Shown one piece after another: positions 22,349-39,174 of a DNA stretch of 48,730 nucleotides. Position 1 is the first letter of the stretch; the number at the start of each line of letters is the position of its first letter. The position numbers and the translations under genes are program-made. Source of the DNA: a virus (lineage: Duplodnaviria; Heunggongvirae; Uroviricota; Caudoviricetes); IMG/VR virus record IMGVR_UViG_3300012346_000137, positions 1 to 48,730 of that record; one strand, written 5' to 3'. Below the pieces are notes generated by a model. It saw only the letters and a program-made list of their open reading frames with translations, was not told where the DNA came from and did no database searches.

Positions 22349-22993
22349 ATGGAAAAGATAATTCATCAAATATGGGTTGGACCTTATGAGATGCCTGTTC
22401 GTGAACAAGGGTTTATACAAGAATTGAAAGATAAAAATCCTACATGGGAACATGTACTATGGAATAATAAAAATCTTCCAAAGCTACCAGAAAAGATCCA
22501 AGTGTTATTCGATCAGTTTGAGAAACAAAAAGATTATGCTCACCAAGCAGATGTACTTAGAGTTTTTCTAGTGAAAGAATATGGTGGATTATATATGGAT
22601 GTAGACTTTAAATGTTCTGAAGGATTTGACAGTTCTGAGTTTCATAAATATGATGGATTATTTTGCTATCATGGTGGAAACGATTATACTATGCCAAATG
22701 GTATATTCGCTTCCACTAAGGGTGGCGATCTAATTACCTATCTAACAGATATGGTTGATATAAGTAAAGGTGGGTGGTATGGTCCTAGTTGGTTAGGTGA
22801 CTCTGTAAAGAGTTATTTAAACCTTCATAGAGAAGCAAGTCATGAGCTCGTTAAGAAAAAACTTAATGAAATCAATGTCAATTATTTATTGTTTCCTGAA
22901 TTAGAAAACAAACATATAAGACACCACGCTTTATATTCCTGGTCTCCAGAGAATAAAAGAAATTTTGAAAATGGAAACATAAACTATTTATGA
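22349..22993 (+). CDS. GT32 (DXD sugar-binding) glycosyltransferase
   Basis: IIHQIW, ADVLRV..EYGGLYMDVD. Confidence 0.85.
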   Translation: MEKIIHQIWVGPYEMPVREQGFIQELKDKNPTWEHVLWNNKNLPKLPEKIQVLFDQFEKQKDYAHQADVLRVFLVKEYGGLYMDVDFKCSEGFDSSEFHKYDGLFCYHGGNDYTMPNGIFASTKGGDLITYLTDMVDISKGGWYGPSWLGDSVKSYLNLHREASHELVKKKLNEINVNYLLFPELENKHIRHHALYSWSPENKRNFENGNINYL

Positions 22994-23775
22994 AAAAAGT
23001 AAGCTTTGTATGTACATCATACAGAAGATTCTACTGTGTTAGACGTATACTAGCACAGTTCTACGCACAAACCTATCCAAACAAAGAGCTCATCATATTC
23101 AATACAGATATGGAATATCCATATGAAGTGGAATATAAAGATGCAAATGTTATTATCGTTAACAATGATAAGAACTTAATCACTGGAGAACCTTATAAGA
23201 ATAGAGGAGAAATCTGCAGAGATGCAGTTGGATACACTACAGGAGATTATTTCATGTTAGCAGATGATGATGATATCTATTTACCATGGCATCTTCAGCA
23301 GGCTGTAGAGGGTATTGAAGAACTAGGTACAGATGCATGGAAACCTGAAAAGAGTTTCTTTGCTGCTCCAGGTAAACTAGAACTAGTAATGAACACCATG
23401 GAAGCTAGTGTAATAGTGAAGATGGAAAGAATTAAAGAAATTGGATTTAGATCTGATCTTACAGGATATGAAGGACTTAGTTGGTATACTAAGTTAAGAG
23501 ATGAGAAGCAGTTAGATGAGCACAATAAAAACTATGTACCATCTTATTGTTTTAACTGGTCTGATCCTTCAGAAGTAGCTGGTCATAAACAATCAGGAGA
23601 CATCAATAATCCTAACAATTTTGAGAACCATAAAAGAGCTAGTGGTGATTATGCAAAAGAACCATTAACTCCTATTACAAAATTAGAGTTGGCTGAAACT
23701 TACGATAAGTATTATAAGTTCTTATTGAACAATCCTGATCAAATCAACCAGGAATATTACAAACGATACGTATGA
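22990..23775 (+). CDS. GT2 / GT-A glycosyltransferase
   Basis: VSFVCTSYRR, ELIIFN, ADDDDIYLP. Confidence 0.8.
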   Translation: MKKVSFVCTSYRRFYCVRRILAQFYAQTYPNKELIIFNTDMEYPYEVEYKDANVIIVNNDKNLITGEPYKNRGEICRDAVGYTTGDYFMLADDDDIYLPWHLQQAVEGIEELGTDAWKPEKSFFAAPGKLELVMNTMEASVIVKMERIKEIGFRSDLTGYEGLSWYTKLRDEKQLDEHNKNYVPSYCFNWSDPSEVAGHKQSGDINNPNNFENHKRASGDYAKEPLTPITKLELAETYDKYYKFLLNNPDQINQEYYKRYV

Positions 23776-24434
23776 AAGTATTAGTATTTACGTCTTCTTA
23801 CAAGAGACCCCACATGTTAAGACAGTGTATTCTAAATGCTAAGAACCAGACCTACAAGAAGTTTAAACATGGTATAAACATTACATCAGATAAGGACGAT
23901 CTACAAAACTATGTAAGATTGATAGATGATGTATACGTTCCTGGTAAGATGGGGCTTATACATTCTACAAATAGCCATACACACTTCAATAACATGGCTG
24001 CTATTAAGCAGTTCAGGAACTACGATACATACGATGTGTTCATCAAGATGGATGACGATGATGTATATAAGTCTGGTTATGTAGAGAACATTGTAAATAT
24101 GTTTGAAGCACGTCCCACAATAGATATTGTATCCTCAAAGATTAGTCACCAACTGAATGGACACAAGCTTTATTACAGTCCTGAGGGATATGACAACCTG
24201 GGAGGTAATCCTGGAGAGTCTACATATCACATGCCTATGACCTTTGCTTTTAATAAAAGAGCATTTGATGTCATTAAAAACCTAGAAGAAAAAGATATAT
24301 GTGGTGGAGATGATATGATGTGGAGAATGCATTGGGAAGCACATGGATTAAAACATGTTGCTGTAGACAATGCAGATGAAATCATATGGCATATACATGG
24401 TAAGAATGATTCAACAGCAAGTTTCTTGGAATAA
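23772..24434 (+). CDS. GT2 / GT-A glycosyltransferase
   Basis: FTSSYKRP, KMDDDDVY, GGDDMMW. Confidence 0.75.
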   Translation: MKVLVFTSSYKRPHMLRQCILNAKNQTYKKFKHGINITSDKDDLQNYVRLIDDVYVPGKMGLIHSTNSHTHFNNMAAIKQFRNYDTYDVFIKMDDDDVYKSGYVENIVNMFEARPTIDIVSSKISHQLNGHKLYYSPEGYDNLGGNPGESTYHMPMTFAFNKRAFDVIKNLEEKDICGGDDMMWRMHWEAHGLKHVAVDNADEIIWHIHGKNDSTASFLE

Positions 24435-24509: not shown

Positions 24510-25262
24510 CTATAATACTTTATAAAACTCATCTAGAAGACATCCTTCTGGATGATATGTGTTTTTATCTAAGTTCCTTGTGTTAAATGGTGTTGTGTAT
24601 ATGTGAGATAGGTAAGAGTCTTTTAGTCTTTCTTTAGCTTCATTGCATAAACTAGGATCAACAAAGTAGTCAAACTCATCCCATCTTATTTGATAAAAAT
24701 ATTCTTTTGGGAATATACCAACTTTATCACTATAACTTTTTACAAACCTCATTAAGAAGTCTGGTCCAAATACACCCCACCCTTTCTTTTTACCTTTCAT
24801 TGAATACAGAAATCTTATTAGATCATTCATGTATCTCTTTGAATATTCGCTGTCTATATATAACACTCCATTAGCTATGTAATCATCGTGTTGTATACCA
24901 GCACAGAGTTTGTAATCACCCCTTAGCTTTTCAAATTCTACAGAGGGTCTTAAGCAAAAACAATCTGTATCAAACCACCAACCTCCACCAACTTTATTAA
25001 TTAAAGCAATTCTAATTATATCAGAAAAAGCTGCTAATGAAGATTGTGTGTTAGTTTTACCATTAAGTTCATCGTGGTAACAAAGATCTCTTATTGCATG
25101 ATAGTTTAAAACTGTATTTGCATTACAAGACTCTGCTCCATCAACTTTTAGATTATTATATGACCACAGTTTCACTTGGAAACCATGGTCAATAAATGAT
25201 TTTATACAAGATTTTTCTAGTATACCTAATTCACCTTCCCAAAAGAAGTTAGCTATTTCCAT
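24510..25262 (-). CDS. GT32-like glycosyltransferase
   Basis: ANFFW, SDIIRIALINKVGGGWWFDTD, GVFGP. Confidence 0.8.
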   Translation of the reverse strand: MEIANFFWEGELGILEKSCIKSFIDHGFQVKLWSYNNLKVDGAESCNANTVLNYHAIRDLCYHDELNGKTNTQSSLAAFSDIIRIALINKVGGGWWFDTDCFCLRPSVEFEKLRGDYKLCAGIQHDDYIANGVLYIDSEYSKRYMNDLIRFLYSMKGKKKGWGVFGPDFLMRFVKSYSDKVGIFPKEYFYQIRWDEFDYFVDPSLCNEAKERLKDSYLSHIYTTPFNTRNLDKNTYHPEGCLLDEFYKVL

Positions 25263-27873: not shown

Positions 27874-28533
27874 TTATTTTAGCTCTGATTTGTACACCTG
27901 TCTGATGTTCCACAGATGACGATAGTTTCCTCCAGAGTGATCTCCTAGATAAGCCATACTTCCATGTTGACCATTCTTTTTTCCTCTACCAATTAATGTG
28001 TTATCAATTACCTGACAAAACACTTCGTTAATCATCATTAATGCCCCCTTACAATTCTCTGTAGAATAATCAAATGCTTTTCCTAATGCACCTGGACCTG
28101 TACAATCTACAGGATGTACACCATAATGTTTTGATTTACAATTACTTACTATAATATCAATAGCTTTTTTCAAATTCTTATTACCTGGTGGAGCATAAAA
28201 CATGCTGCAGGAAACATATCTATCTATTGTGTCTTTAAAAAATATTGGTTTACCATCAACATACTTATCTATACCAGGAAGAATAGAAAAACTAACATCT
28301 AAATACCATCCACCATGAATATATATAATTGCAAACTTAGCTAAGTCTGCTTTAAACGAGTATGGGATTAGTTCATCATAAGCCCAGATTACATCTGGTT
28401 CAAAGTTATTCTCTAGTAGTTCTCTTACATCAGCGTCATTCCACAGCCTATGTTCATAATTAGCTTTTACTTTTTCTATCTTATCAAGTGCTACTGGAGA
28501 TGGGTTGTTGGTTATATATACTTGGTGTATCAT
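27874..28533 (-). CDS. GT32 glycosyltransferase
   Basis: MIHQVY, KADLAKFAIIYIHGGWYLDV, CTGP. Confidence 0.85.
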   Translation of the reverse strand: MIHQVYITNNPSPVALDKIEKVKANYEHRLWNDADVRELLENNFEPDVIWAYDELIPYSFKADLAKFAIIYIHGGWYLDVSFSILPGIDKYVDGKPIFFKDTIDRYVSCSMFYAPPGNKNLKKAIDIIVSNCKSKHYGVHPVDCTGPGALGKAFDYSTENCKGALMMINEVFCQVIDNTLIGRGKKNGQHGSMAYLGDHSGGNYRHLWNIRQVYKSELK

Positions 28534-29213
28534 TTTATTATCACTGGTTCGTTATCTAAATATCCTGTGTAAACAGAATGGTGTCCTCTAGTTATACAAT
28601 CGTATGTCAATCGTACAGCATCGTTACACTCAAACTCTAAATATCCATCTTGATATAAATGTTTAGTTTCAAGAATTGCTCTACTGTAACATAGAGGTCC
28701 TGTAACACCTAAAACATCAGTTTTAATATCTAAGTTGGGTCTTTTTCTGTAGTTACGTACATTTTCTTTAATACGTTGTATCACCTTCTCTAATATTGGA
28801 TGACCAGGTTCAGCCATTATATGCCAATTCTGAAACTCACCAAGCTTATATCTAAGTGTGTCAGCATGCCAACGATGACACCAATGTCCTGTAATAAACT
28901 TATAATTCTCAGCCCATTCAGTTAGGTCTCCTTCAGGAGCACTTTTAATATCAAAATAGAATCCCCCCACCTTATATATAAGTAGGTATCTAAATAGATC
29001 AGCCCTTGCCATACCAAGCTTTGGATTAATCATGTTATACATGTCCAACATTTCTTGGTCGTAGTTTTCTTTAATGAAGTTGATTATATCTTCATCATCG
29101 TATAACCTGTATTCAAATGTAGGACAATTGTCCTTTATTCTAAATACTACTTCTTGTAGTTCTAATGGGAGATTTTTAGTTTTGTATGTTTGATGTATTA
29201 TCTTAGGTATCAT
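28530..29213 (-). CDS. GT32 glycosyltransferase
   Basis: MIPKIIHQTY, RADLFRYLLIYKVGGFYFDI, VTGP. Confidence 0.9.
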   Translation of the reverse strand: MIPKIIHQTYKTKNLPLELQEVVFRIKDNCPTFEYRLYDDEDIINFIKENYDQEMLDMYNMINPKLGMARADLFRYLLIYKVGGFYFDIKSAPEGDLTEWAENYKFITGHWCHRWHADTLRYKLGEFQNWHIMAEPGHPILEKVIQRIKENVRNYRKRPNLDIKTDVLGVTGPLCYSRAILETKHLYQDGYLEFECNDAVRLTYDCITRGHHSVYTGYLDNEPVIIK

Positions 29214-29222
29214 ATTGTTGGT

Positions 29223-29921
29223 TTACTTATTTATAAAAGTAAGATAATGATCTTTCCAATCTACATTATTTGGATTATCTAGTTCTGTTGGATAAGTTGC
29301 TGTGTCAACTTGTACATCTTTAACTATTGCTTTAGAAATGAAGCTAAGTTCGATTACTTCTGGTATAGCATACCCTTCATAGTTAAAAGTCCCAGCATAG
29401 TTATTACCATGTACGTGACATAAATAGAAATGTTTGTTTAGATTTTCTATAGCAGCTATAAATCTATTTCTAAAGTTTTCATCAGATACCATGTGGAATT
29501 CTATAACTAAACCTGAACAAACATCTGCAAGTCTTTCGATGTCAGTGTTTTCTAACCATTCGTATTCATAGCATTCAACATCCACTTTTAGTAACACCTT
29601 TCCAGATATACCAAGTTCTTTATAGTGATTTAAAAAGTTATCTGTTTGCTCCTGAGGGGTTCCAGATAATCCTTTTTTATACCATGTAAACAAGCTAGGA
29701 TATTCTGTATGAATTCCTTCTATGGTGTGATCATACCCATACACTTTCTTGTTAGTAAACTGTATGTAATGTTCATCAAATGTGATGTCGTTATTTATTC
29801 CATAACTAAACAAACATTCACTGTCTTGTAATAATTGCTTAGGAAGAACATACCCCCCATCATTGGTTCTTCCAAGTCTAATCTTTTCTCCTACATAGTA
29901 GGGCTTTAGTTGGTTTATCAT
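29223..29921 (-). CDS. FkbM-like SAM-dependent methyltransferase
   Basis: RLGRTNDGGY, SYGINNDITFD, LLKVDVECYEY, HVHGNN. Confidence 0.7.
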   Translation of the reverse strand: MINQLKPYYVGEKIRLGRTNDGGYVLPKQLLQDSECLFSYGINNDITFDEHYIQFTNKKVYGYDHTIEGIHTEYPSLFTWYKKGLSGTPQEQTDNFLNHYKELGISGKVLLKVDVECYEYEWLENTDIERLADVCSGLVIEFHMVSDENFRNRFIAAIENLNKHFYLCHVHGNNYAGTFNYEGYAIPEVIELSFISKAIVKDVQVDTATYPTELDNPNNVDWKDHYLTFINK

Positions 29922-29924
29922 TGG

Positions 29925-30206
29925 TTATAATTCTATATCAAATACTATTGTTGCTGAGCTTTTGATGCTCTTGCTCAAATTAAGTTTGAGTTGCAACACA
30001 TTATGAAACTTTAATAGCTCCTCCAATAACATCTCGTTGTAACGAGGTACTGATGTGGCTATTCTAAAGTGATAAGATTTAGGATGCTTTGTTATCTCTA
30101 CGATAGCTAGCTCATCCACTGAATCTATAATTCCTTCCAAGTGAGCAAAATAAGCCATTTCGTTATCTTGCATCACTTGAGGAAAGTATTTTTTACTAAT
30201 TTGCAT
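29925..30206 (-). CDS. Hypothetical protein
   Basis: Co-linear ORF. Confidence 0.7.
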   Translation of the reverse strand: MQISKKYFPQVMQDNEMAYFAHLEGIIDSVDELAIVEITKHPKSYHFRIATSVPRYNEMLLEELLKFHNVLQLKLNLSKSIKSSATIVFDIEL

Positions 30207-30610
30207 TAGGACAAAGTTAATAAGTATTTAGTTTTAGCTGCTTCACCACTTAAGGCATCAGCTAGGTTACATATGTCATGAAAGTTATTTGCTTCACCAT
30301 AACTCTTTAAGTTACTAGCAAAGTCCATAAGAGCTACTACCACTGCTGTTGAGTCTGCAGCAGTTAATGGCTCTATCTTAAATACACCAGGACGCTTACC
30401 TGTATAACCCATCAACTTCTCTATAACACCATCTTTGAAATCATGTACATAATCGTACAATCCTCCAAGAGCTTGATGTTCAGCATAACTCTTTGTCTGC
30501 CAATGTAATAGATGTAATTGCTCATGGAAGTGTGTAAGCTTTCCAGCTATTGTTTCTAAATTTAGTTCTCCTGATTTCATCATTTCCTCAGGGAATAGGG
30601 ATTTTGCCAT
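30206..30610 (-). CDS. DUF5856-like ferritin/Dps-fold protein
   Basis: HLLHWQTKSYAEHQALGGLYD...D..IE..MG; KTKYLLTLS. Confidence 0.7.
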   Translation of the reverse strand: MAKSLFPEEMMKSGELNLETIAGKLTHFHEQLHLLHWQTKSYAEHQALGGLYDYVHDFKDGVIEKLMGYTGKRPGVFKIEPLTAADSTAVVVALMDFASNLKSYGEANNFHDICNLADALSGEAAKTKYLLTLS

Positions 30611-30635: not shown

Positions 30636-31739
30636 TTAACATTGTACTAATTGACCTGCACTAGCAGCTACGTTTACATGAATGGTTTGTGAATATGGAG
30701 GACTTGGTGGTAACACAGTGTAAACATATGGATTTGAAATACCACAATATGTATAATAAGGTCCTTGATCACCAATTCCAAAATTTATATCATTATCTGA
30801 CATATCTGTTACAGCAATATACGTATTATATCCAACAAAACCTGCTGCTATTGGAGCATATAGATTACCATTTGGATACCCTCCAACATAACTTGAAAAT
30901 ATACTGTACCAACTTACACCATCTAAACTATACTTAATTTTAAATGGAGTTGATATACCATCTGTTTCGTAGTGTAAATAACCATCAATACCAGTGTTAC
31001 CTGGTGGTGGAAAGTATATTGTTGTAGTAGTTGTAGTAGTAGGTGCAATTGTTGTAGTTGTAGTGGTTGTACATTCTGTACAAGGTTGTGGATTCTCAAA
31101 TATCACTCCAGTAGAAGCTGCTATTCTAATAGAAGAAATAACACCATTGTTATCTGTAGCAAACCATCCATCATTAACTCCACTATAAGGAGAAGTTAAA
31201 GCTGGATCATTGTAAAGAACAGAACCTAATGTTAATGTACTTACATTAGAATAGAATGTTACAAAAGGACCATTTGGATAATTTGTACAAGCAATACATC
31301 CTGATGTATAATTAGGAATAAGATTGGTATAAAAACTATATACAGCTTGAGTAGTTGTTGTACTAGTAGTAGGAACTGCAGTAGTTGTACTTGTAGTTGT
31401 AGAAATAGGAGGAAGTGTTGTAGTGGTTGTGGTAGTTATACCATTACCTCTATACTGTGCATTAATTTCAAGCCATGTTGTTTGGCTATTGTTATCTCCT
31501 GGTTCTTTTGTTAGCAACACAAGGCTGCTTGGGACAACACGATTGAAATAATCTATACGAACAAAAGCTCTCAACACATTAGTGCCTGAAGAGCCTGTCC
31601 AGTTAGTACCTATTACATTACTAACAGCTTGCCAGTTACCCACTTTTGGTGGTTTAGCACTTATGATAGGACCACCAGCGACAATGCGTCCCTGGTGATC
31701 ATATCTTACATAAGCTATATTGCCATTTCTTCCTAGCAT
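30636..31739 (-). CDS. Thr-rich putative virion decoration protein (paralogue 1, tandem VRYD module)
   Basis: AYVRYDHQGRIV..PKVGNW and AFVRIDYFNRVV; several poly-Thr tracts. Confidence 0.65.
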   Translation of the reverse strand: MLGRNGNIAYVRYDHQGRIVAGGPIISAKPPKVGNWQAVSNVIGTNWTGSSGTNVLRAFVRIDYFNRVVPSSLVLLTKEPGDNNSQTTWLEINAQYRGNGITTTTTTTLPPISTTTSTTTAVPTTSTTTTQAVYSFYTNLIPNYTSGCIACTNYPNGPFVTFYSNVSTLTLGSVLYNDPALTSPYSGVNDGWFATDNNGVISSIRIAASTGVIFENPQPCTECTTTTTTTIAPTTTTTTTIYFPPPGNTGIDGYLHYETDGISTPFKIKYSLDGVSWYSIFSSYVGGYPNGNLYAPIAAGFVGYNTYIAVTDMSDNDINFGIGDQGPYYTYCGISNPYVYTVLPPSPPYSQTIHVNVAASAGQLVQC

Positions 31740-31748
31740 ATTATTTTA

Positions 31749-32228
31749 TTAACAACTTTCTTGAACTCCATTATTATATCCTGCTGAGCCAGATTGAACA
31801 GTAATGTAAACAACAGAAGGTGAAAAAGAATCTTTAACTCTTAATGATACACCAGGATCAATTCCAAATTGAGCCCATGTATATCCTGGAGCCAATGATA
31901 CGTCCCCAGCTGTAGCTATACCATCAGGGAACACTATAGGTAAATTAAATTGACCTTCATAAATACAAATATTACCTGAAGGACCAAATCGATAATCTGC
32001 ATTATAAAAAGTCAACGCTTGTGTTGTAGATGTTGTTGTTGTAATATTACCTCCAGATGTTGTAGTAGTTGTAGTAGTTCCACTACTAGGATTACAACAA
32101 AGATCTGCATTGATTTGTCTCCAATTGCCCACTTTGGGCTTGCTTGCTCTAAATATAGGACCAGCTGTAACAACAGTGTTGGTTCCATCATATCTAACCC
32201 AAGCTTTTAATTTGCTTTGATTTGCCAT
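31749..32228 (-). CDS. Thr-rich putative virion decoration protein (paralogue 2)
   Basis: KAWVRYDGTNTVV..KPKVGNWRQI..LCC then poly-Thr. Confidence 0.65.
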   Translation of the reverse strand: MANQSKLKAWVRYDGTNTVVTAGPIFRASKPKVGNWRQINADLCCNPSSGTTTTTTTSGGNITTTTSTTQALTFYNADYRFGPSGNICIYEGQFNLPIVFPDGIATAGDVSLAPGYTWAQFGIDPGVSLRVKDSFSPSVVYITVQSGSAGYNNGVQESC

Positions 32229-32246
32229 TTTATTTTATATTTTTAT

Positions 32247-32271
32247 AAAAAGCACACCATGAAGATGTGCT
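32247..32271 (-). terminator. Possible intrinsic terminator
   Basis: AGCACATC-TTCAT-GGTGTGCT followed by TTTT on minus strand. Confidence 0.45.
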
Positions 32272-32286
32272 CTATTTATTATTTAA

Positions 32287-32997
32287 TTAACAAGCTGTAT
32301 AACTATCAATTGTATTTCCAAATGGACCACTCATAGTACACACTTGATCTTGAGCTGCAAAGTATATGCTAAGGTATGTACCATTTGCTACTGGATTATA
32401 AATAACACTTAATCCTGCATCCATAAATAAATTAACACCTGTGTTTAAGCTTGGTGTATTAGCATATACAGTTATCATTGGATTAACTCTAGCACAAGCA
32501 TCTCCTGGAGATGATGCACCATATGCATCAAATGAATACACAGGAAGTTCTGTAGTAGTTGTAGTAGTTGTTACTTCTGAACAATTTAATACACTTAATA
32601 CACCACCTGCACCAACAACATAGTTAATCATCATTCCTCCTTCATAAATTACCCATCCTTCGTACAAAGGAATAGTTAATTCTGCATTTACATACACAGT
32701 AACACCTGCTGTTAATACAGGAGATGCTGAGTAAAATGTAACATCACCACTTGTTGTAGTAGTACATGCATCAAATGCGTTTGTCCAATATCCTCTTATA
32801 AACGCTGTTGGAGTTACACTAATTGTTGTGGTTGTTGTGGTTGTTCCACTGTCAGTGCAGCATAAGTTTTTAGTGATTTCACCCCATCTTCCATTCTTGG
32901 GTTTCTTCTTTCTAAAAACAAGGCTACCTGAAACTACTCTGCCACTACCATCGTAGCGAACAAAAGCTTTTAAATCTTTAAGTTTTACACTTCCCAT
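32287..32997 (-). CDS. Thr-rich putative virion decoration protein (paralogue 3)
   Basis: KAFVRYDGSGRVV..KPKNGRWGEI..LCC, two poly-Thr tracts, two repeated AC..FYS..L..G domains. Confidence 0.65.
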   Translation of the reverse strand: MGSVKLKDLKAFVRYDGSGRVVSGSLVFRKKKPKNGRWGEITKNLCCTDSGTTTTTTTISVTPTAFIRGYWTNAFDACTTTTSGDVTFYSASPVLTAGVTVYVNAELTIPLYEGWVIYEGGMMINYVVGAGGVLSVLNCSEVTTTTTTTELPVYSFDAYGASSPGDACARVNPMITVYANTPSLNTGVNLFMDAGLSVIYNPVANGTYLSIYFAAQDQVCTMSGPFGNTIDSYTAC

Positions 32998-33013
32998 AAT
33001 AATTGTTATTAGG

Positions 33014-34030
33014 TTAATAGTTTAGGTTATATTTGTTTTTTAAATCAATAAGTCGAGACAAGTAATAATGTGTACAAAACTTCTTACTGGTTTCATCATT
33101 CATTACCACTTGTAAATGAGGATCTAGGAAAGGATCTGCACCTTGGTGGTACTTACCTTTATAAAATGCTGGATAGCCATTAGCTGTATCACTAACGATT
33201 CCTGCATTGTGAAATATGCCAACTTCTTCTACTCTTTGAATTGGATCACTAGACCACGCAAAAGCCATTTCAGGAATGTTCTTTGCTTCTTGTTTCCTAT
33301 ACCAAAGATTCCATAGAACAGCCCACATATCAGCACACCAGCTTTGAAAACCTGTATTCTCATCTTTGAAGAACTCTCTGTTCACTTGCATTAAAAATGT
33401 TCTAATGATCAGACAGTCTTGTAGCACCTTTTCCCAGAAGTCAGCATCTACATTCTTCAGCAGATACTGTGCTCCTCCTGAGTGTTGGTTGTGTTCCTCA
33501 GCAATCGCTCTGCTGATTCCACACATCTCTGCTAACTCTCCAAGAATATCTCTCTTCTTATACTCTTCTAGCTTCTCAGGCAAGACTTGGTGTATTTTAC
33601 TATCAAAATATGAAGCGTTGATGTAGCTGTTTGTATCAGACAAATAACTAACATCGTCATTTAAATAAGCATCTAAATTAAACTTAGGAGTTAACACTGT
33701 ATCACTATCACAATAGAGAACAGCTTTATCCTTCATCTCTGGGTGCTCAGCAAAGTATCTCTTTAATACATAAGGACGTAGGATAGGAATGTATGTTCCT
33801 AAGAAATTACTAATCCCATCAACGTCTTTGTAAAAAACAAACTCAGCCTCAGGGTAAAGATCTACAACTTGTTTCCACTTTGTATTTTCTTCCCTGAAGC
33901 TGGGTATGAATATTAATACTATTGCTTTATCTGAATGTCCTAGCTCTCTTAAGCTCTCTAGCCACATATGCACTTGCCATGTGTAATAGGTATCATCTGG
34001 TTGAGCACAGATAAATTTAAGATCCTTCAT
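33014..34030 (-). CDS. GT-A glycosyltransferase resembling peptide O-glycosyltransferases (SERGT/HPAT-like)
   Basis: YYTWQVHMW, YIPILRPYVL, YCDSD, GGAQY, WCADMW, IFHNAG. Confidence 0.6.
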   Translation of the reverse strand: MKDLKFICAQPDDTYYTWQVHMWLESLRELGHSDKAIVLIFIPSFREENTKWKQVVDLYPEAEFVFYKDVDGISNFLGTYIPILRPYVLKRYFAEHPEMKDKAVLYCDSDTVLTPKFNLDAYLNDDVSYLSDTNSYINASYFDSKIHQVLPEKLEEYKKRDILGELAEMCGISRAIAEEHNQHSGGAQYLLKNVDADFWEKVLQDCLIIRTFLMQVNREFFKDENTGFQSWCADMWAVLWNLWYRKQEAKNIPEMAFAWSSDPIQRVEEVGIFHNAGIVSDTANGYPAFYKGKYHQGADPFLDPHLQVVMNDETSKKFCTHYYLSRLIDLKNKYNLNY

Positions 34031-35144: not shown

Positions 35145-35354
35145 TTAATTTAATATGATAAAATCATTATTCTCAGTGATTAACTGATCATTGTTTTCTG
35201 TTGTCAAATAACTAACAGCAAGTGTTGTTGTAGTGGTTGTTGTACCAACTTGAACGTTTCCTGCCACTTGTATCAACTTCTCTAATTGCTTAGATATGCT
35301 CCAAAGCAGCTTAGCCTTTTGACTCCATCCTATTTGTTGACTTGGTATTGCCAT
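35145..35354 (-). CDS. Small Thr-rich protein with MAIPSxQIGW module
   Basis: N-terminus paralogous to 36607..36978; T7 tract; tandem TENND. Confidence 0.65.
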   Translation of the reverse strand: MAIPSQQIGWSQKAKLLWSISKQLEKLIQVAGNVQVGTTTTTTTLAVSYLTTENNDQLITENNDFIILN

Positions 35355-36606: not shown

Positions 36607-36978
36607 TTAATCAGTACCCCAAAAAGATAAATAAGTTACTTTAGTTGCATCACTGAAACATAATTGTACAGTGTGTGCAGTATTTTCAGCAGTGTAAAGA
36701 TGCTCTATGTCTACAGCAGCACCAGTAGTGATTGTACCATTACTTGTTGTACCATCACCCCATGTAGCAGTGTATGTTATATCTGCTGATGACTCAACAG
36801 TCATTCCAAAGTTAAGTCCACCTATTGTAGTGTTAGCTACAAAATCAATACAATTTGTATTTGCTGGTGCTTGACCAATGTTATATATAACCTTAGTTAA
36901 GGTTTCCAATTGTTTGGCTATCTGCCACAGAAGTTTTTCTTCTGTTCCCCAGCCTATTTGTCTAGATGGTATTGCCAT
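36607..36978 (-). CDS. MAIPSxQIGW module plus PKD-like domain
   Basis: YTATWGDGT...HLY is a PKD-like signature. Confidence 0.6.
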   Translation of the reverse strand: MAIPSRQIGWGTEEKLLWQIAKQLETLTKVIYNIGQAPANTNCIDFVANTTIGGLNFGMTVESSADITYTATWGDGTTSNGTITTGAAVDIEHLYTAENTAHTVQLCFSDATKVTYLSFWGTD

Positions 36979-37989: not shown

Positions 37990-39174
37990 TTATAAATTAA
38001 CCTTACTACCAACCACTGCAAAGAACAGCATTGGAATAGAAGGATCTGTGCTTACACTAGTCTTTAGACCAGTGTTGAACTTAAACCTTTTTGTAATTGA
38101 ATAGTCCATACTGAAGCCTGTAAGGAACATCATATCTTCACTTATTGTAAAGGTGTTATCCTTTATTCCATAAGTTACAGGGCTCCCAGAGATATATAGG
38201 TCAGGAGATATGGTCAAGCGTTTATTGATTTGAAATGGTTTAGTGTAAAACACTAATAAAGAATGACTTGTAGTGAACTGCTCAGGTGTTTTTTGAATAC
38301 TCACTGTAGCATTGATACCAGTCACACCCCACTTTCCTAGAGGATATATCTGTGCGTATGTAAGAAAACCAAATGTGTTACCAAATGCATGTACTAATGT
38401 AGCACCACTGTTATCTATTCTTGATAACTTACCATCATCAAAGTTCATTTTAGTGTAGCGTCCACTAAGAGCAAACTGTTGTAAGTTACTCCATACCATT
38501 CCTGTCACTCCCCAACTCACATCTCCAGCCATGGATGTTTGAGATATACCACTAGTTACAATTAAGTTAACTGAGTTATCTAATGTTTGTCCTGCTGTAA
38601 GATCAGAGTTGAATAGTATGGGATTCATCTTAGCTTGTGATTTACCACCCCCCTTACTGCTAGACTTTCCTCCAGATTTAGACGAACTCGAGGAACTTTT
38701 AGACGAACTTCCTCCAGAACTACTTGATTCTGAACTACTTGTAGTTTCACTGCTAGACGAAGTACTAGACGAACTAGCAGCACTAGATGCTGCAGCACTT
38801 GCAGCTGAGCTAGCAGCAGAGGAAGCTGCTCCACTAACAGCAGAACTTACAGCTCCACTTACAGCTGATGAGACAGCAGATGCTGTAACAATTGTAGAAG
38901 TTTGTGTTGCTTGAGCCACTGCACACGCAGAAAACTTTTTGTACTCTTCGTAAACTTGATTAATCCAGGCTTGAAAAGCCCCACTATAAACATCGTTAGC
39001 TGTAAAAGCTTTAGATTTATTATAAAAAACAACAATGGTAGAGCCAGAAAGAGGTATACTAAAAGTGCTAACAACTTTAGTGCAAGGGTCTGTAAAAGTT
39101 TGTATAAGAGTTTGAGAATACGCATATACTGGTAGTATTACTACTGTTATTAGAATTAAAATAAACTGTTTCAT
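37990..39174 (-). CDS. Exported protein with Ser/Ala linker and probable outer-membrane beta-barrel
   Basis: Signal peptide MKQFILILITVVILPVYAYSQ; long S/A/G tract; C-terminal half of alternating amphipathic strands. Confidence 0.6.
   Translation of the reverse strand: MKQFILILITVVILPVYAYSQTLIQTFTDPCTKVVSTFSIPLSGSTIVVFYNKSKAFTANDVYSGAFQAWINQVYEEYKKFSACAVAQATQTSTIVTASAVSSAVSGAVSSAVSGAASSAASSAASAAASSAASSSSTSSSSETTSSSESSSSGGSSSKSSSSSSKSGGKSSSKGGGKSQAKMNPILFNSDLTAGQTLDNSVNLIVTSGISQTSMAGDVSWGVTGMVWSNLQQFALSGRYTKMNFDDGKLSRIDNSGATLVHAFGNTFGFLTYAQIYPLGKWGVTGINATVSIQKTPEQFTTSHSLLVFYTKPFQINKRLTISPDLYISGSPVTYGIKDNTFTISEDMMFLTGFSMDYSITKRFKFNTGLKTSVSTDPSIPMLFFAVVGSKVNL

Follow-up and report, generated by a model that had tools for sequence, protein, structure and literature searches.

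The 48,730-nucleotide (nt) stretch of viral DNA analysed here (the window) makes up the initial 48.7 kb of a Caudoviricetes genome of 112.7 kb, IMG/VR record IMGVR_UViG_3300012346_000137, with a CheckV completeness estimate of 98%. Between positions 30,636 and 34,030 its minus strand carries a 338-amino-acid (aa) candidate peptidyl-Thr O-glycosyltransferase (33014-34030) and, downstream of it, three genes encoding proteins with runs of seven threonines (T7). We consider it likely that this enzyme glycosylates the Thr tracts of phage proteins, making it a putative O-glycosyltransferase (GT) with poly-Thr acceptor tags, as judged from comparison of phage genomes and from a predicted structure. 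The pairing of an O-GT with Thr tracts had been proposed in a first-pass annotation of the window, and it is supported by comparative tests (adjacency of the genes, and gain or loss of the enzyme jointly with the tags) as well as by the fold. The assignment of the product as a soluble enzyme of the GT-A type draws on its match to phrog_4417, its predicted fold, and an invariant DSD motif.

Seven lineages of distant carriers, in which the enzyme shares 26–33% identity with the one in the window, were inspected, and poly-Thr proteins adjoin the enzyme gene in all seven; these are phages of Enterococcus, Lactobacillus, Lactococcus, Arcanobacterium, and Chryseobacterium. In five of the seven the poly-Thr takes the form of C-terminal tags on annotated capsid or tail proteins. 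Enterococcus phage phiFL1A has Thr at the C-termini of both capsid and tail tube, and Enterococcus phage VPE25 has a Thr tag on the tail tube; in Lactobacillus phage iLp84 the capsid protein ends in PTTTTTTTSK, the tail tube ends in ETTTTTTTSK, and a further protein consists of 41% Ser/Thr. Lactococcus phage 1706 carries tails of nine or ten threonines on two products, annotated as capsid protein/protease (orf10) and as major structural protein (orf13). The Lactobacillus myophage Iacchus, Arcanobacterium phage TPWB06, and Chryseobacterium phage MA9V-3 likewise encode poly-Thr proteins beside the enzyme. In the siphophage carriers the enzyme gene directly follows the capsid or tail-tube gene; in the window it sits among tail-fibre-like genes.

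Comparison of carriers with close non-carriers among other phages disclosed that the presence of Thr tags changes with that of the enzyme. The enzyme is present in iLp84 and absent from the whole records of phages iLp1308, CL2, and R24.2. Their capsid proteins are near-identical and differ by a T7 insert, ending in ...VLVPTTTTTTTSK in iLp84 and in ...VLIPKP in the other three, and the tail tubes differ likewise, with T7 in iLp84 and none in iLp1308, CL2, or R24.2. In these non-carriers a 59-aa gene replaces the genes for the poly-Thr protein and the enzyme. The pattern is repeated between phiFL1A, a carrier, and the Streptococcus phages Javan570, 315.6, and Javan47. Per compared structural module, runs of at least five threonines number 2–9 in each of seven carriers and zero in six non-carriers.

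Two further observations concern the distant carriers. In TPWB06 (L088:7164-7926) a 68-aa open reading frame (ORF), 56% of it Ser/Thr, lies just ahead of the enzyme gene and overlaps the 3' end of the preceding tail-tube gene; from the sequence, it may be a frameshift extension that lengthens the Thr tail on a fraction of tail-tube subunits. In the Enterococcus phages phiFL2A and phiFL1C the enzyme match falls in two pieces, and in phiFL2A it is annotated under "major tail protein". The cause could be a frameshift or gene fusion, or else an artefact of annotation.

Closer relatives, gathered with the enzyme protein as the single query, share 66–95% enzyme identity. Same-strand ORFs with Thr runs are kept in 75 of 80 such loci, and they adjoin the enzyme gene in the loci that were inspected. 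The length of the runs is strongly biased: exactly seven threonines occur in 237 of the 414 runs of at least four (loci L003-L082), the remaining lengths being four (31 runs), five (53), six (22), eight (55), and nine (16). T7 recurs in the Lactobacillus phages iLp84 and Iacchus. This preference for seven threonines could mark the acceptor footprint of the enzyme or a spacing constraint.

Two families of N-terminal anchor domain bear the runs in these relatives, and in both the Thr run begins immediately after the N-terminal domain. The first, with the signature VRYDG...PKVGxW, is the type of the three paralogues in the window; it is found in 79 of 81 loci, its run starts at median residue 50, and almost every relative has genes of this type downstream of the enzyme gene. 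The second, with the N-terminus MAIPSQQIGW, occurs in 78 of 81 loci with the run starting at median residue 38. Its genes are usually just upstream of the enzyme gene and often encode only about 55 aa, comprising the anchor and tags of seven or eight threonines. The residues flanking the runs give the motif P/S-T7-(A/V)-A-P. After the first run the proteins are extremely variable, with various small Cys-containing domains, or only strings of T7/T8 (up to twelve) with A/E/V-x-P between them. Some members (L032:1613-2152 and L031:11325-11711) consist of the 45-aa N-terminal domain and, after it, only (ST)n tracts and as many as twelve T7/T8 runs; they have no globular domain, and by their sequences they look like pure glycan-carrier proteins.

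The three same-strand genes downstream of the enzyme gene in the window are paralogues, with 38% identity and a common N-terminal domain of about 45 aa, and together they contain six runs, each of exactly seven threonines. Paralogue 1 (32287-32997, minus strand, 236 aa) is composed of the N-terminal anchor-like domain, T7 (residues 52–58), a bead, a second T7 (143–149), and another bead. Paralogue 2 (31749-32228, minus strand, 159 aa) has the common N-terminal domain, a T7 and a T4 run, and a small Cys-containing domain. Paralogue 3 (30636-31739, minus strand, 367 aa) has the N-terminal domain, which appears from the sequence to be duplicated and is followed by three T7 runs along with S/T tracts and by a C-terminal domain; the protein gives a weak compositional match to Pfam Mucin (E 0.03). 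Two of its runs, at 31020-31040 and 31050-31070 on the minus strand, are separated by IAP and fit the motif P/S-T7-(A/V)-A-P. A seventh run of the region, absent from the first-pass annotation, belongs to a 69-aa protein of the second anchor family (35145-35354, minus strand, N-terminus MAIPSQQIGW...), in which T7 occupies residues 38–44 right after the anchor. Its N-terminus is common to a 123-aa paralogue of the MAIPS type without a Thr run (36607-36978, minus strand).

The codons of these runs follow the Thr usage outside them. The string ACT ACC ACA ACC ACT ACA ACA encodes residues 102–108 of paralogue 3, and across the runs, which mix ACA, ACT, and ACC, ACA accounts for 53% of Thr codons (56% outside the runs) and ACT for 35% (37% outside). 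As the codons in the runs mirror usage elsewhere, the T7 runs are not slippage repeats. The earlier proposal that the next three genes are paralogues with mixed-codon Thr runs selected at the protein level thus agrees with both their identity and their codon usage.

Of the eight T7 runs in the 112.7-kb genome, seven fall between 30.6 and 35.4 kb; by estimate, chance would give about 0.02 at a Thr frequency near 10%. The eighth is in a 1,652-aa protein outside the window (74797-79752, minus strand), which also contains a 31-residue Ser/Thr tract and matches two PHROG families labelled "virion structural protein". An unannotated 520-aa protein, also outside the window (83315-84874, minus strand), has a 28-residue Ser/Thr tract. 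Judging by these tracts, the two proteins are likely further acceptors, 41–50 kb from the enzyme gene.

An AlphaFold2 model of the 236-aa paralogue comprises a confident N-terminal domain (predicted local distance difference test, pLDDT, >90), T7 linkers with pLDDT <50 (disordered), and two folded beads. A fold search with the model against solved structures returned nothing at E<=0.001, and a search of BFVD brought up uncharacterised viral proteins alone, some of them from a Cellulophaga phage and from Virus NIOZ-UU157. Cys is the C-terminal residue of all three paralogues, a Cys-Cys pair closely precedes the first T7 in two of them, and the sequence ECCN is conserved in relatives; this pattern hints at disulfide or metal-mediated attachment.

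The enzyme itself contains, in order, the motifs YYTWQ (residues 15–19), YIPILRP (80–86), DSD (108–110), and WCADMW (231–236), all four being present as first quoted. An alignment of 55 diverse family members revealed the conserved blocks YFxWQ, YIPxxRP, DSD, and QSWCADMW, with D108 and D110 of the DSD motif, Y80, Q229, H274, and K291 invariant. The corresponding motifs of the plant enzymes were given in the first-pass annotation as YFDWQ, YPAINKP, DAD, and WISEMY, and their putative match to the phage motifs draws on that list and on the overall fold alignment. The profile of phrog_4417, whose function is not annotated, covers the enzyme over its full length (E 1e-53; residues 4–319 against profile positions 1–285 of 293). 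A Pfam scan of the enzyme (hmmscan, E<=1) found no family, Glyco_transf_8 (CAZy GT8) included, and no real Pfam family emerged from the 55 members. Searching PDB sequences with the family profile gave TAL-repeat matches alone, which were discarded as spurious.

The family is large. About 2,800 clusters at 90% identity match the enzyme at E<=0.001, the best 120 sharing at least 65% identity, and 754 representatives match at 50% clustering. Homologues occur in 77 of 50,697 deposited phage genomes (0.15%), and no Mycobacterium phage is among these 77 records. Homologues are also found in Bacteroidota bacteria, and in longer family members the enzyme is joined to a GT2, GT6, GT32, methyltransferase, or radical-SAM domain.

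To place the enzyme structurally, we used an AlphaFold2 model built with the family alignment, which has a GT-A fold with pLDDT 97.2 and a predicted template modelling score of 0.94. The top Swiss-Prot match in Foldseek was Arabidopsis SERGT1 (E 4e-11; template modelling score, TM, 0.60), followed by HPAT1-3 (TM 0.54–0.58), RDN, PLENTY, and NOD3, with E values of 1e-8 to 7e-7 for HPAT1-3 and RDN; glycogenin and other GT8 enzymes ranked below SERGT1/HPAT. Clusters of the AlphaFold DB gave the family's own members and then a long series of "HPAT-like domain" proteins (TM 0.56–0.65), and the ESM Atlas gave a cluster of Chlorophyta (green-algal) HPAT proteins with TM 0.71 over 301 residues. Language-model neighbour clusters contained PF23452, the Pfam HPAT family, in 10% and 58% of their members. 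The predicted GT-A fold is thus closest to HPAT/SERGT1 among characterised enzymes, and the SERGT/HPAT likeness noted from motifs in the first-pass annotation proves real at the level of the fold, ahead of GT8. Among solved structures the best matches were retaining GT-A enzymes of the GT8 type, namely glycogenin, Skp1 alpha-galactosyltransferase, LgtC, UGGT, WbbM, and GlyE (Z 12.5–13.6). The likeness to GT8 is one of fold only (Z 13.6, TM about 0.46).

No signal peptide or transmembrane segment was found in the enzyme, whose maximum Kyte-Doolittle mean over 19 residues is 0.78 and whose model is globular from residue 4; the type II membrane anchor of Golgi enzymes, looked for specifically, is absent. 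The T7-bearing proteins likewise have no signal or transmembrane segment, which indicates that enzyme and putative acceptors are made in the same compartment.

The association was also approached from the side of the Thr tracts. An arbitrary sample of IMG/VR loci matching (ACN)7 yielded 56 with an in-frame run of at least seven threonines, and the enzyme is encoded in three of these 56 fragments, directly adjacent to the run in all three. It is found in six of 41 whole viral contigs with such runs, and in two of the ten that are at least 70% complete; six of 41 is roughly a hundred-fold above the 0.15% carriage of the family among phage records. An exclusive link between poly-Thr tracts and the enzyme was discarded on the same counts (3/56 and 6/41). 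The expectation of co-occurrence across phages therefore held in one direction, as carriers have Thr tracts (75 of 80 close loci, seven of seven distant lineages), and not in the other.

Several observations weigh against Thr-tract glycosylation by this enzyme. The reverse sample left 35 of 41 contigs with runs of at least seven threonines without the enzyme, eight of ten among the more complete ones, which indicates that Thr tracts also occur independently of it. The profile check suggested in the first-pass annotation turned out negative, in that Pfam HPAT (PF23452, cut-off 23.9 bits) gives the enzyme no score, with membership undetected by sequence; one of the 55 relatives reached E 0.045. 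PF23452, searched against the whole genome in six frames, turned up no candidate, but neither did it give a signal in the control genomes. The fold neighbours include LgtC and WbbM, builders of lipo-oligosaccharide and O-antigen, so the fold leaves the acceptor unfixed. The association of the window's T7 proteins with the particle is putative, since their domains match nothing solved and it derives from the neighbourhood of fibre genes. The non-carrier comparisons span two lineages, and the support for Thr glycosylation is comparative and structural throughout.

Some of these points would fit a target other than protein (for instance teichoic acid, a lipid, or a polysaccharide of the host envelope), with the Thr runs being plain flexible linkers that are coincidentally common in the same phages. 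The many tract-bearing contigs without the enzyme, the presence of LgtC and WbbM among its fold neighbours, its Bacteroidota bacterial homologues, and the family fusions to GT2, GT6, and radical-SAM domains, which are typical of polysaccharide pathways, all agree with such a target. It leaves unexplained, in two lineages, why T7 tags on capsid and tail tube come and go with the enzyme, and it accounts neither for the strict adjacency of the enzyme and Thr-tract genes nor for proteins made of an anchor domain and Thr runs alone. The enzyme is moreover soluble, with no membrane segment, and we regard a non-protein target as quite unlikely. Glycosylation of the phage's own DNA, as a hydroxymethyl-pyrimidine sugar modification that evades restriction, has general precedent. 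Phage GTs often modify DNA, and HPAT relatives transfer arabinose. Pentose and arabinose modifications of DNA are known (PMC12838424). Against this, no homologue of thymidylate synthase (ThyA) or dCMP hydroxymethylase (PF00303) was found in the 98%-complete genome, and in temperate siphophages the gene lies inside the head-tail morphogenesis module, after a capsid or tail-tube gene, which makes a DNA target very improbable.

A different question is whether the enzyme adds the first sugar. It might instead extend a glycan whose first sugar had been put on Thr by an enzyme of the host or by a further phage enzyme, in the manner of GlyE on serine-rich-repeat proteins; several of its top structural neighbours (Skp1 alpha-galactosyltransferase, GlyE, and LgtC) elongate existing glycans, and at least six other GTs are encoded in this genome. 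However, searches for GT2 and GT1 in the three small siphophages iLp84, phiFL1A, and 1706 found none, and the family member is the only detectable GT in each, which favours an initiating role. Of all the components only the enzyme invariably accompanies the Thr tags, and the accessory transferases of the window are missing from nearly all relatives. An extending role is consequently unlikely in our judgement, and we return to an enzyme that would itself act on the Thr tracts.

For such an enzyme the following mechanism can be proposed. A soluble, metal-dependent GT-A enzyme would act in the cytoplasm of the infected cell and move a sugar from a host nucleotide-sugar onto the Thr hydroxyls of phage proteins, before or during assembly. 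The acceptors in this phage would be the two small families flanking the enzyme gene, built from an N-terminal domain of 35–45 aa, Thr7 linkers, and variable domains or nothing, and the 1,652-aa product matching "virion structural protein" families, which also bears T7, would be a further one. The outcome would be stiff, hydrated, mucin-like stalks or tags coated with glycan, on proteins that probably sit on the particle, and the nearby GTs and methyltransferase could lengthen or cap the sugar chain. Transfer to Thr, priming of the glycan by this enzyme, and a place on the virion for the three paralogues are inferred, as are the identity of the sugar and the role of the modification, be it shielding, solubility, or adhesion.

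With some reserve, we lean towards a broader interpretation. One enzyme family, distantly related to the plant GTs of extensins and arabinogalactan proteins, together with a portable P-T7-A-A-P tag may form a mobile mucin-type O-glycosylation cassette that phages of at least three phyla of hosts (Bacillota, Actinomycetota, and Bacteroidota) have repeatedly acquired to sugar-coat capsids, tails, and fibres, the preference for seven threonines being the acceptor footprint. In full-text literature searches, no paper was found that connects either this enzyme family or enzymes like HPAT/SERGT with phage proteins or with poly-Thr tags, in line with the first-pass annotation, which knew of no description of a GT95/96-like enzyme used in this way by a Bacteroidota phage. 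If the interpretation is correct, self-glycosylation would be widespread among phages, in abundant environmental ones as well as in cultured phages that infect Enterococcus, Lactobacillus, Lactococcus, and Staphylococcus, some of which matter for dairy fermentation or for phage therapy. Effects on virion stability, immunogenicity, mucus adherence, and host recognition would be expected, and an evolutionary link to the plant GT95/GT96 enzymes would be implied. A soluble enzyme with a seven-residue tag would also offer a minimal, genetically encodable tool for glycosylating proteins in the bacterial cytoplasm.

The window has a G+C content of about 35%, and its host was presumably a member of the Bacteroidota. 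Its plus strand is a replication arm (DnaB-like helicase, primase, rIIA/rIIB, ribonucleotide reductase, UvsX-like recombinase, and PhoH), and its minus strand is a late arm from about 24.5 kb, inside which the cassette sits with all genes on one strand at spacings of 9–58 nt. The late arm encodes tail-fibre-like products, among them a collagen-like fibre and proteins with leucine-rich repeats and LamG domains, as well as a protein matching PHROG families of the long-tail-fibre distal subunit and a GH19 endolysin. A DNA similarity search of the region against known phages gave only a 56-nt low-complexity match. Directly after the poly-Thr genes comes a syntenic block of a DUF5856 (Dps/ferritin-like) gene (30206-30610, minus strand; Pfam DUF5856 E 1e-12, PHROG "starvation-inducible regulator") and a 93-aa ORF (29925-30206, minus strand), a pair that 73 of 81 relatives likewise have downstream of the enzyme gene. 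One further product, of 394 aa (37990-39174), combines a signal peptide of Bacteroidota style with a long low-complexity region that is rich in Ser and Ala and includes S6 and S4-T-S4 runs; being exported, it would lie outside the enzyme's compartment.

Other glycan-related genes lie nearby. Pfam matches identify two GT32-like GTs with DXD motifs and an FkbM-type methyltransferase at 27874-29921 on the minus strand (Gly_transf_sug E 4e-6 and 3e-11; Methyltransf_21 E 1e-4). These three genes are present in only 3, 2, and 1 of 81 relatives, respectively, and as nearly all relatives do without them they were ruled out as fixed parts of the system and are better viewed as variable cargo for elaborating the glycan. 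In one relative with 75% enzyme identity (L002:1-4722) they are replaced by a sulfotransferase, an APS kinase, and a 1,131-aa GT1-family protein, which suggests from gene content that some lineages make sulfated glycans. Four more GTs were recognised by Pfam matches: a GT32-like gene (22349-22993, plus strand), two GT2 genes (22990-23775 and 23772-24434, both plus strand), and a Gb3_synth/GT32-like gene (24510-25262, minus strand). Any part of these four in the system is conjectural.

Compared with characterised systems, the phage enzyme is nearest in fold to the plant and algal enzymes SERGT1 (GT96) and HPAT/RDN/PLENTY (GT95); PF23452 corresponds to CAZy GT95, with GT96 (SERGT1/SGT1) as its nearest relative. 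The plant SERGT1 and HPAT enzymes are GT-A proteins with a DxD-type motif that prime hydroxyl side chains of extended, repetitive Ser/Hyp-rich tracts. They differ from the phage enzyme in sharing only 12–14% sequence identity with it and in being recognised by a Pfam model that gives it no score. They are also type II membrane proteins of the Golgi, whereas the phage enzyme has no membrane anchor, and their acceptor is Ser/Hyp, in contrast to the presumed Thr. The GT8-type enzymes glycogenin and GlyE, the latter acting on pneumococcal PsrP, give the best solved-structure matches and resemble the phage enzyme in being cytoplasmic with protein-linked acceptors, and serine-rich-repeat systems similarly pair dedicated transferases with a low-complexity Ser/Thr acceptor protein. 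However, the phage enzyme has no Glyco_transf_8 match and has about 100 extra residues as helical insertions, it is phage-borne, and its tags are short T7 runs rather than repeats hundreds of residues long. Chlorovirus PBCV-1 A64R and Mimivirus R699 are likewise virus-encoded cytoplasmic GT-A enzymes with fold matches (Z 11.4 and 10.2, respectively), yet they belong to eukaryotic viruses and serve N-linked or fibril glycans with no poly-Thr tags.

To our knowledge, experiments have established glycosylation of the particle for no phages other than some mycobacteriophages, in which it changes recognition by antibodies. Freeman and colleagues are said to have described it in 2023 in Cell Host Microbe, with glycans at the C-termini of capsid and tail-tube subunits. 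This precedent of mycobacteriophage capsid and tail-tube glycosylation is cited in PMC12619734. The enzyme family found here differs from the mycobacteriophage one, as no Mycobacterium phage is among the 77 records with a homologue. The presumed acceptor differs too, being a pure poly-Thr tag, carried in the window by fibre-like paralogues rather than by capsid or tail tube. The two systems are alike in that the transferases are phage-encoded, with the gene in or beside the structural genes here too, and the capsid and tail-tube C-termini that bear the mycobacteriophage glycans are the very sites of the Thr tags in the Enterococcus, Lactobacillus, and Lactococcus carriers.

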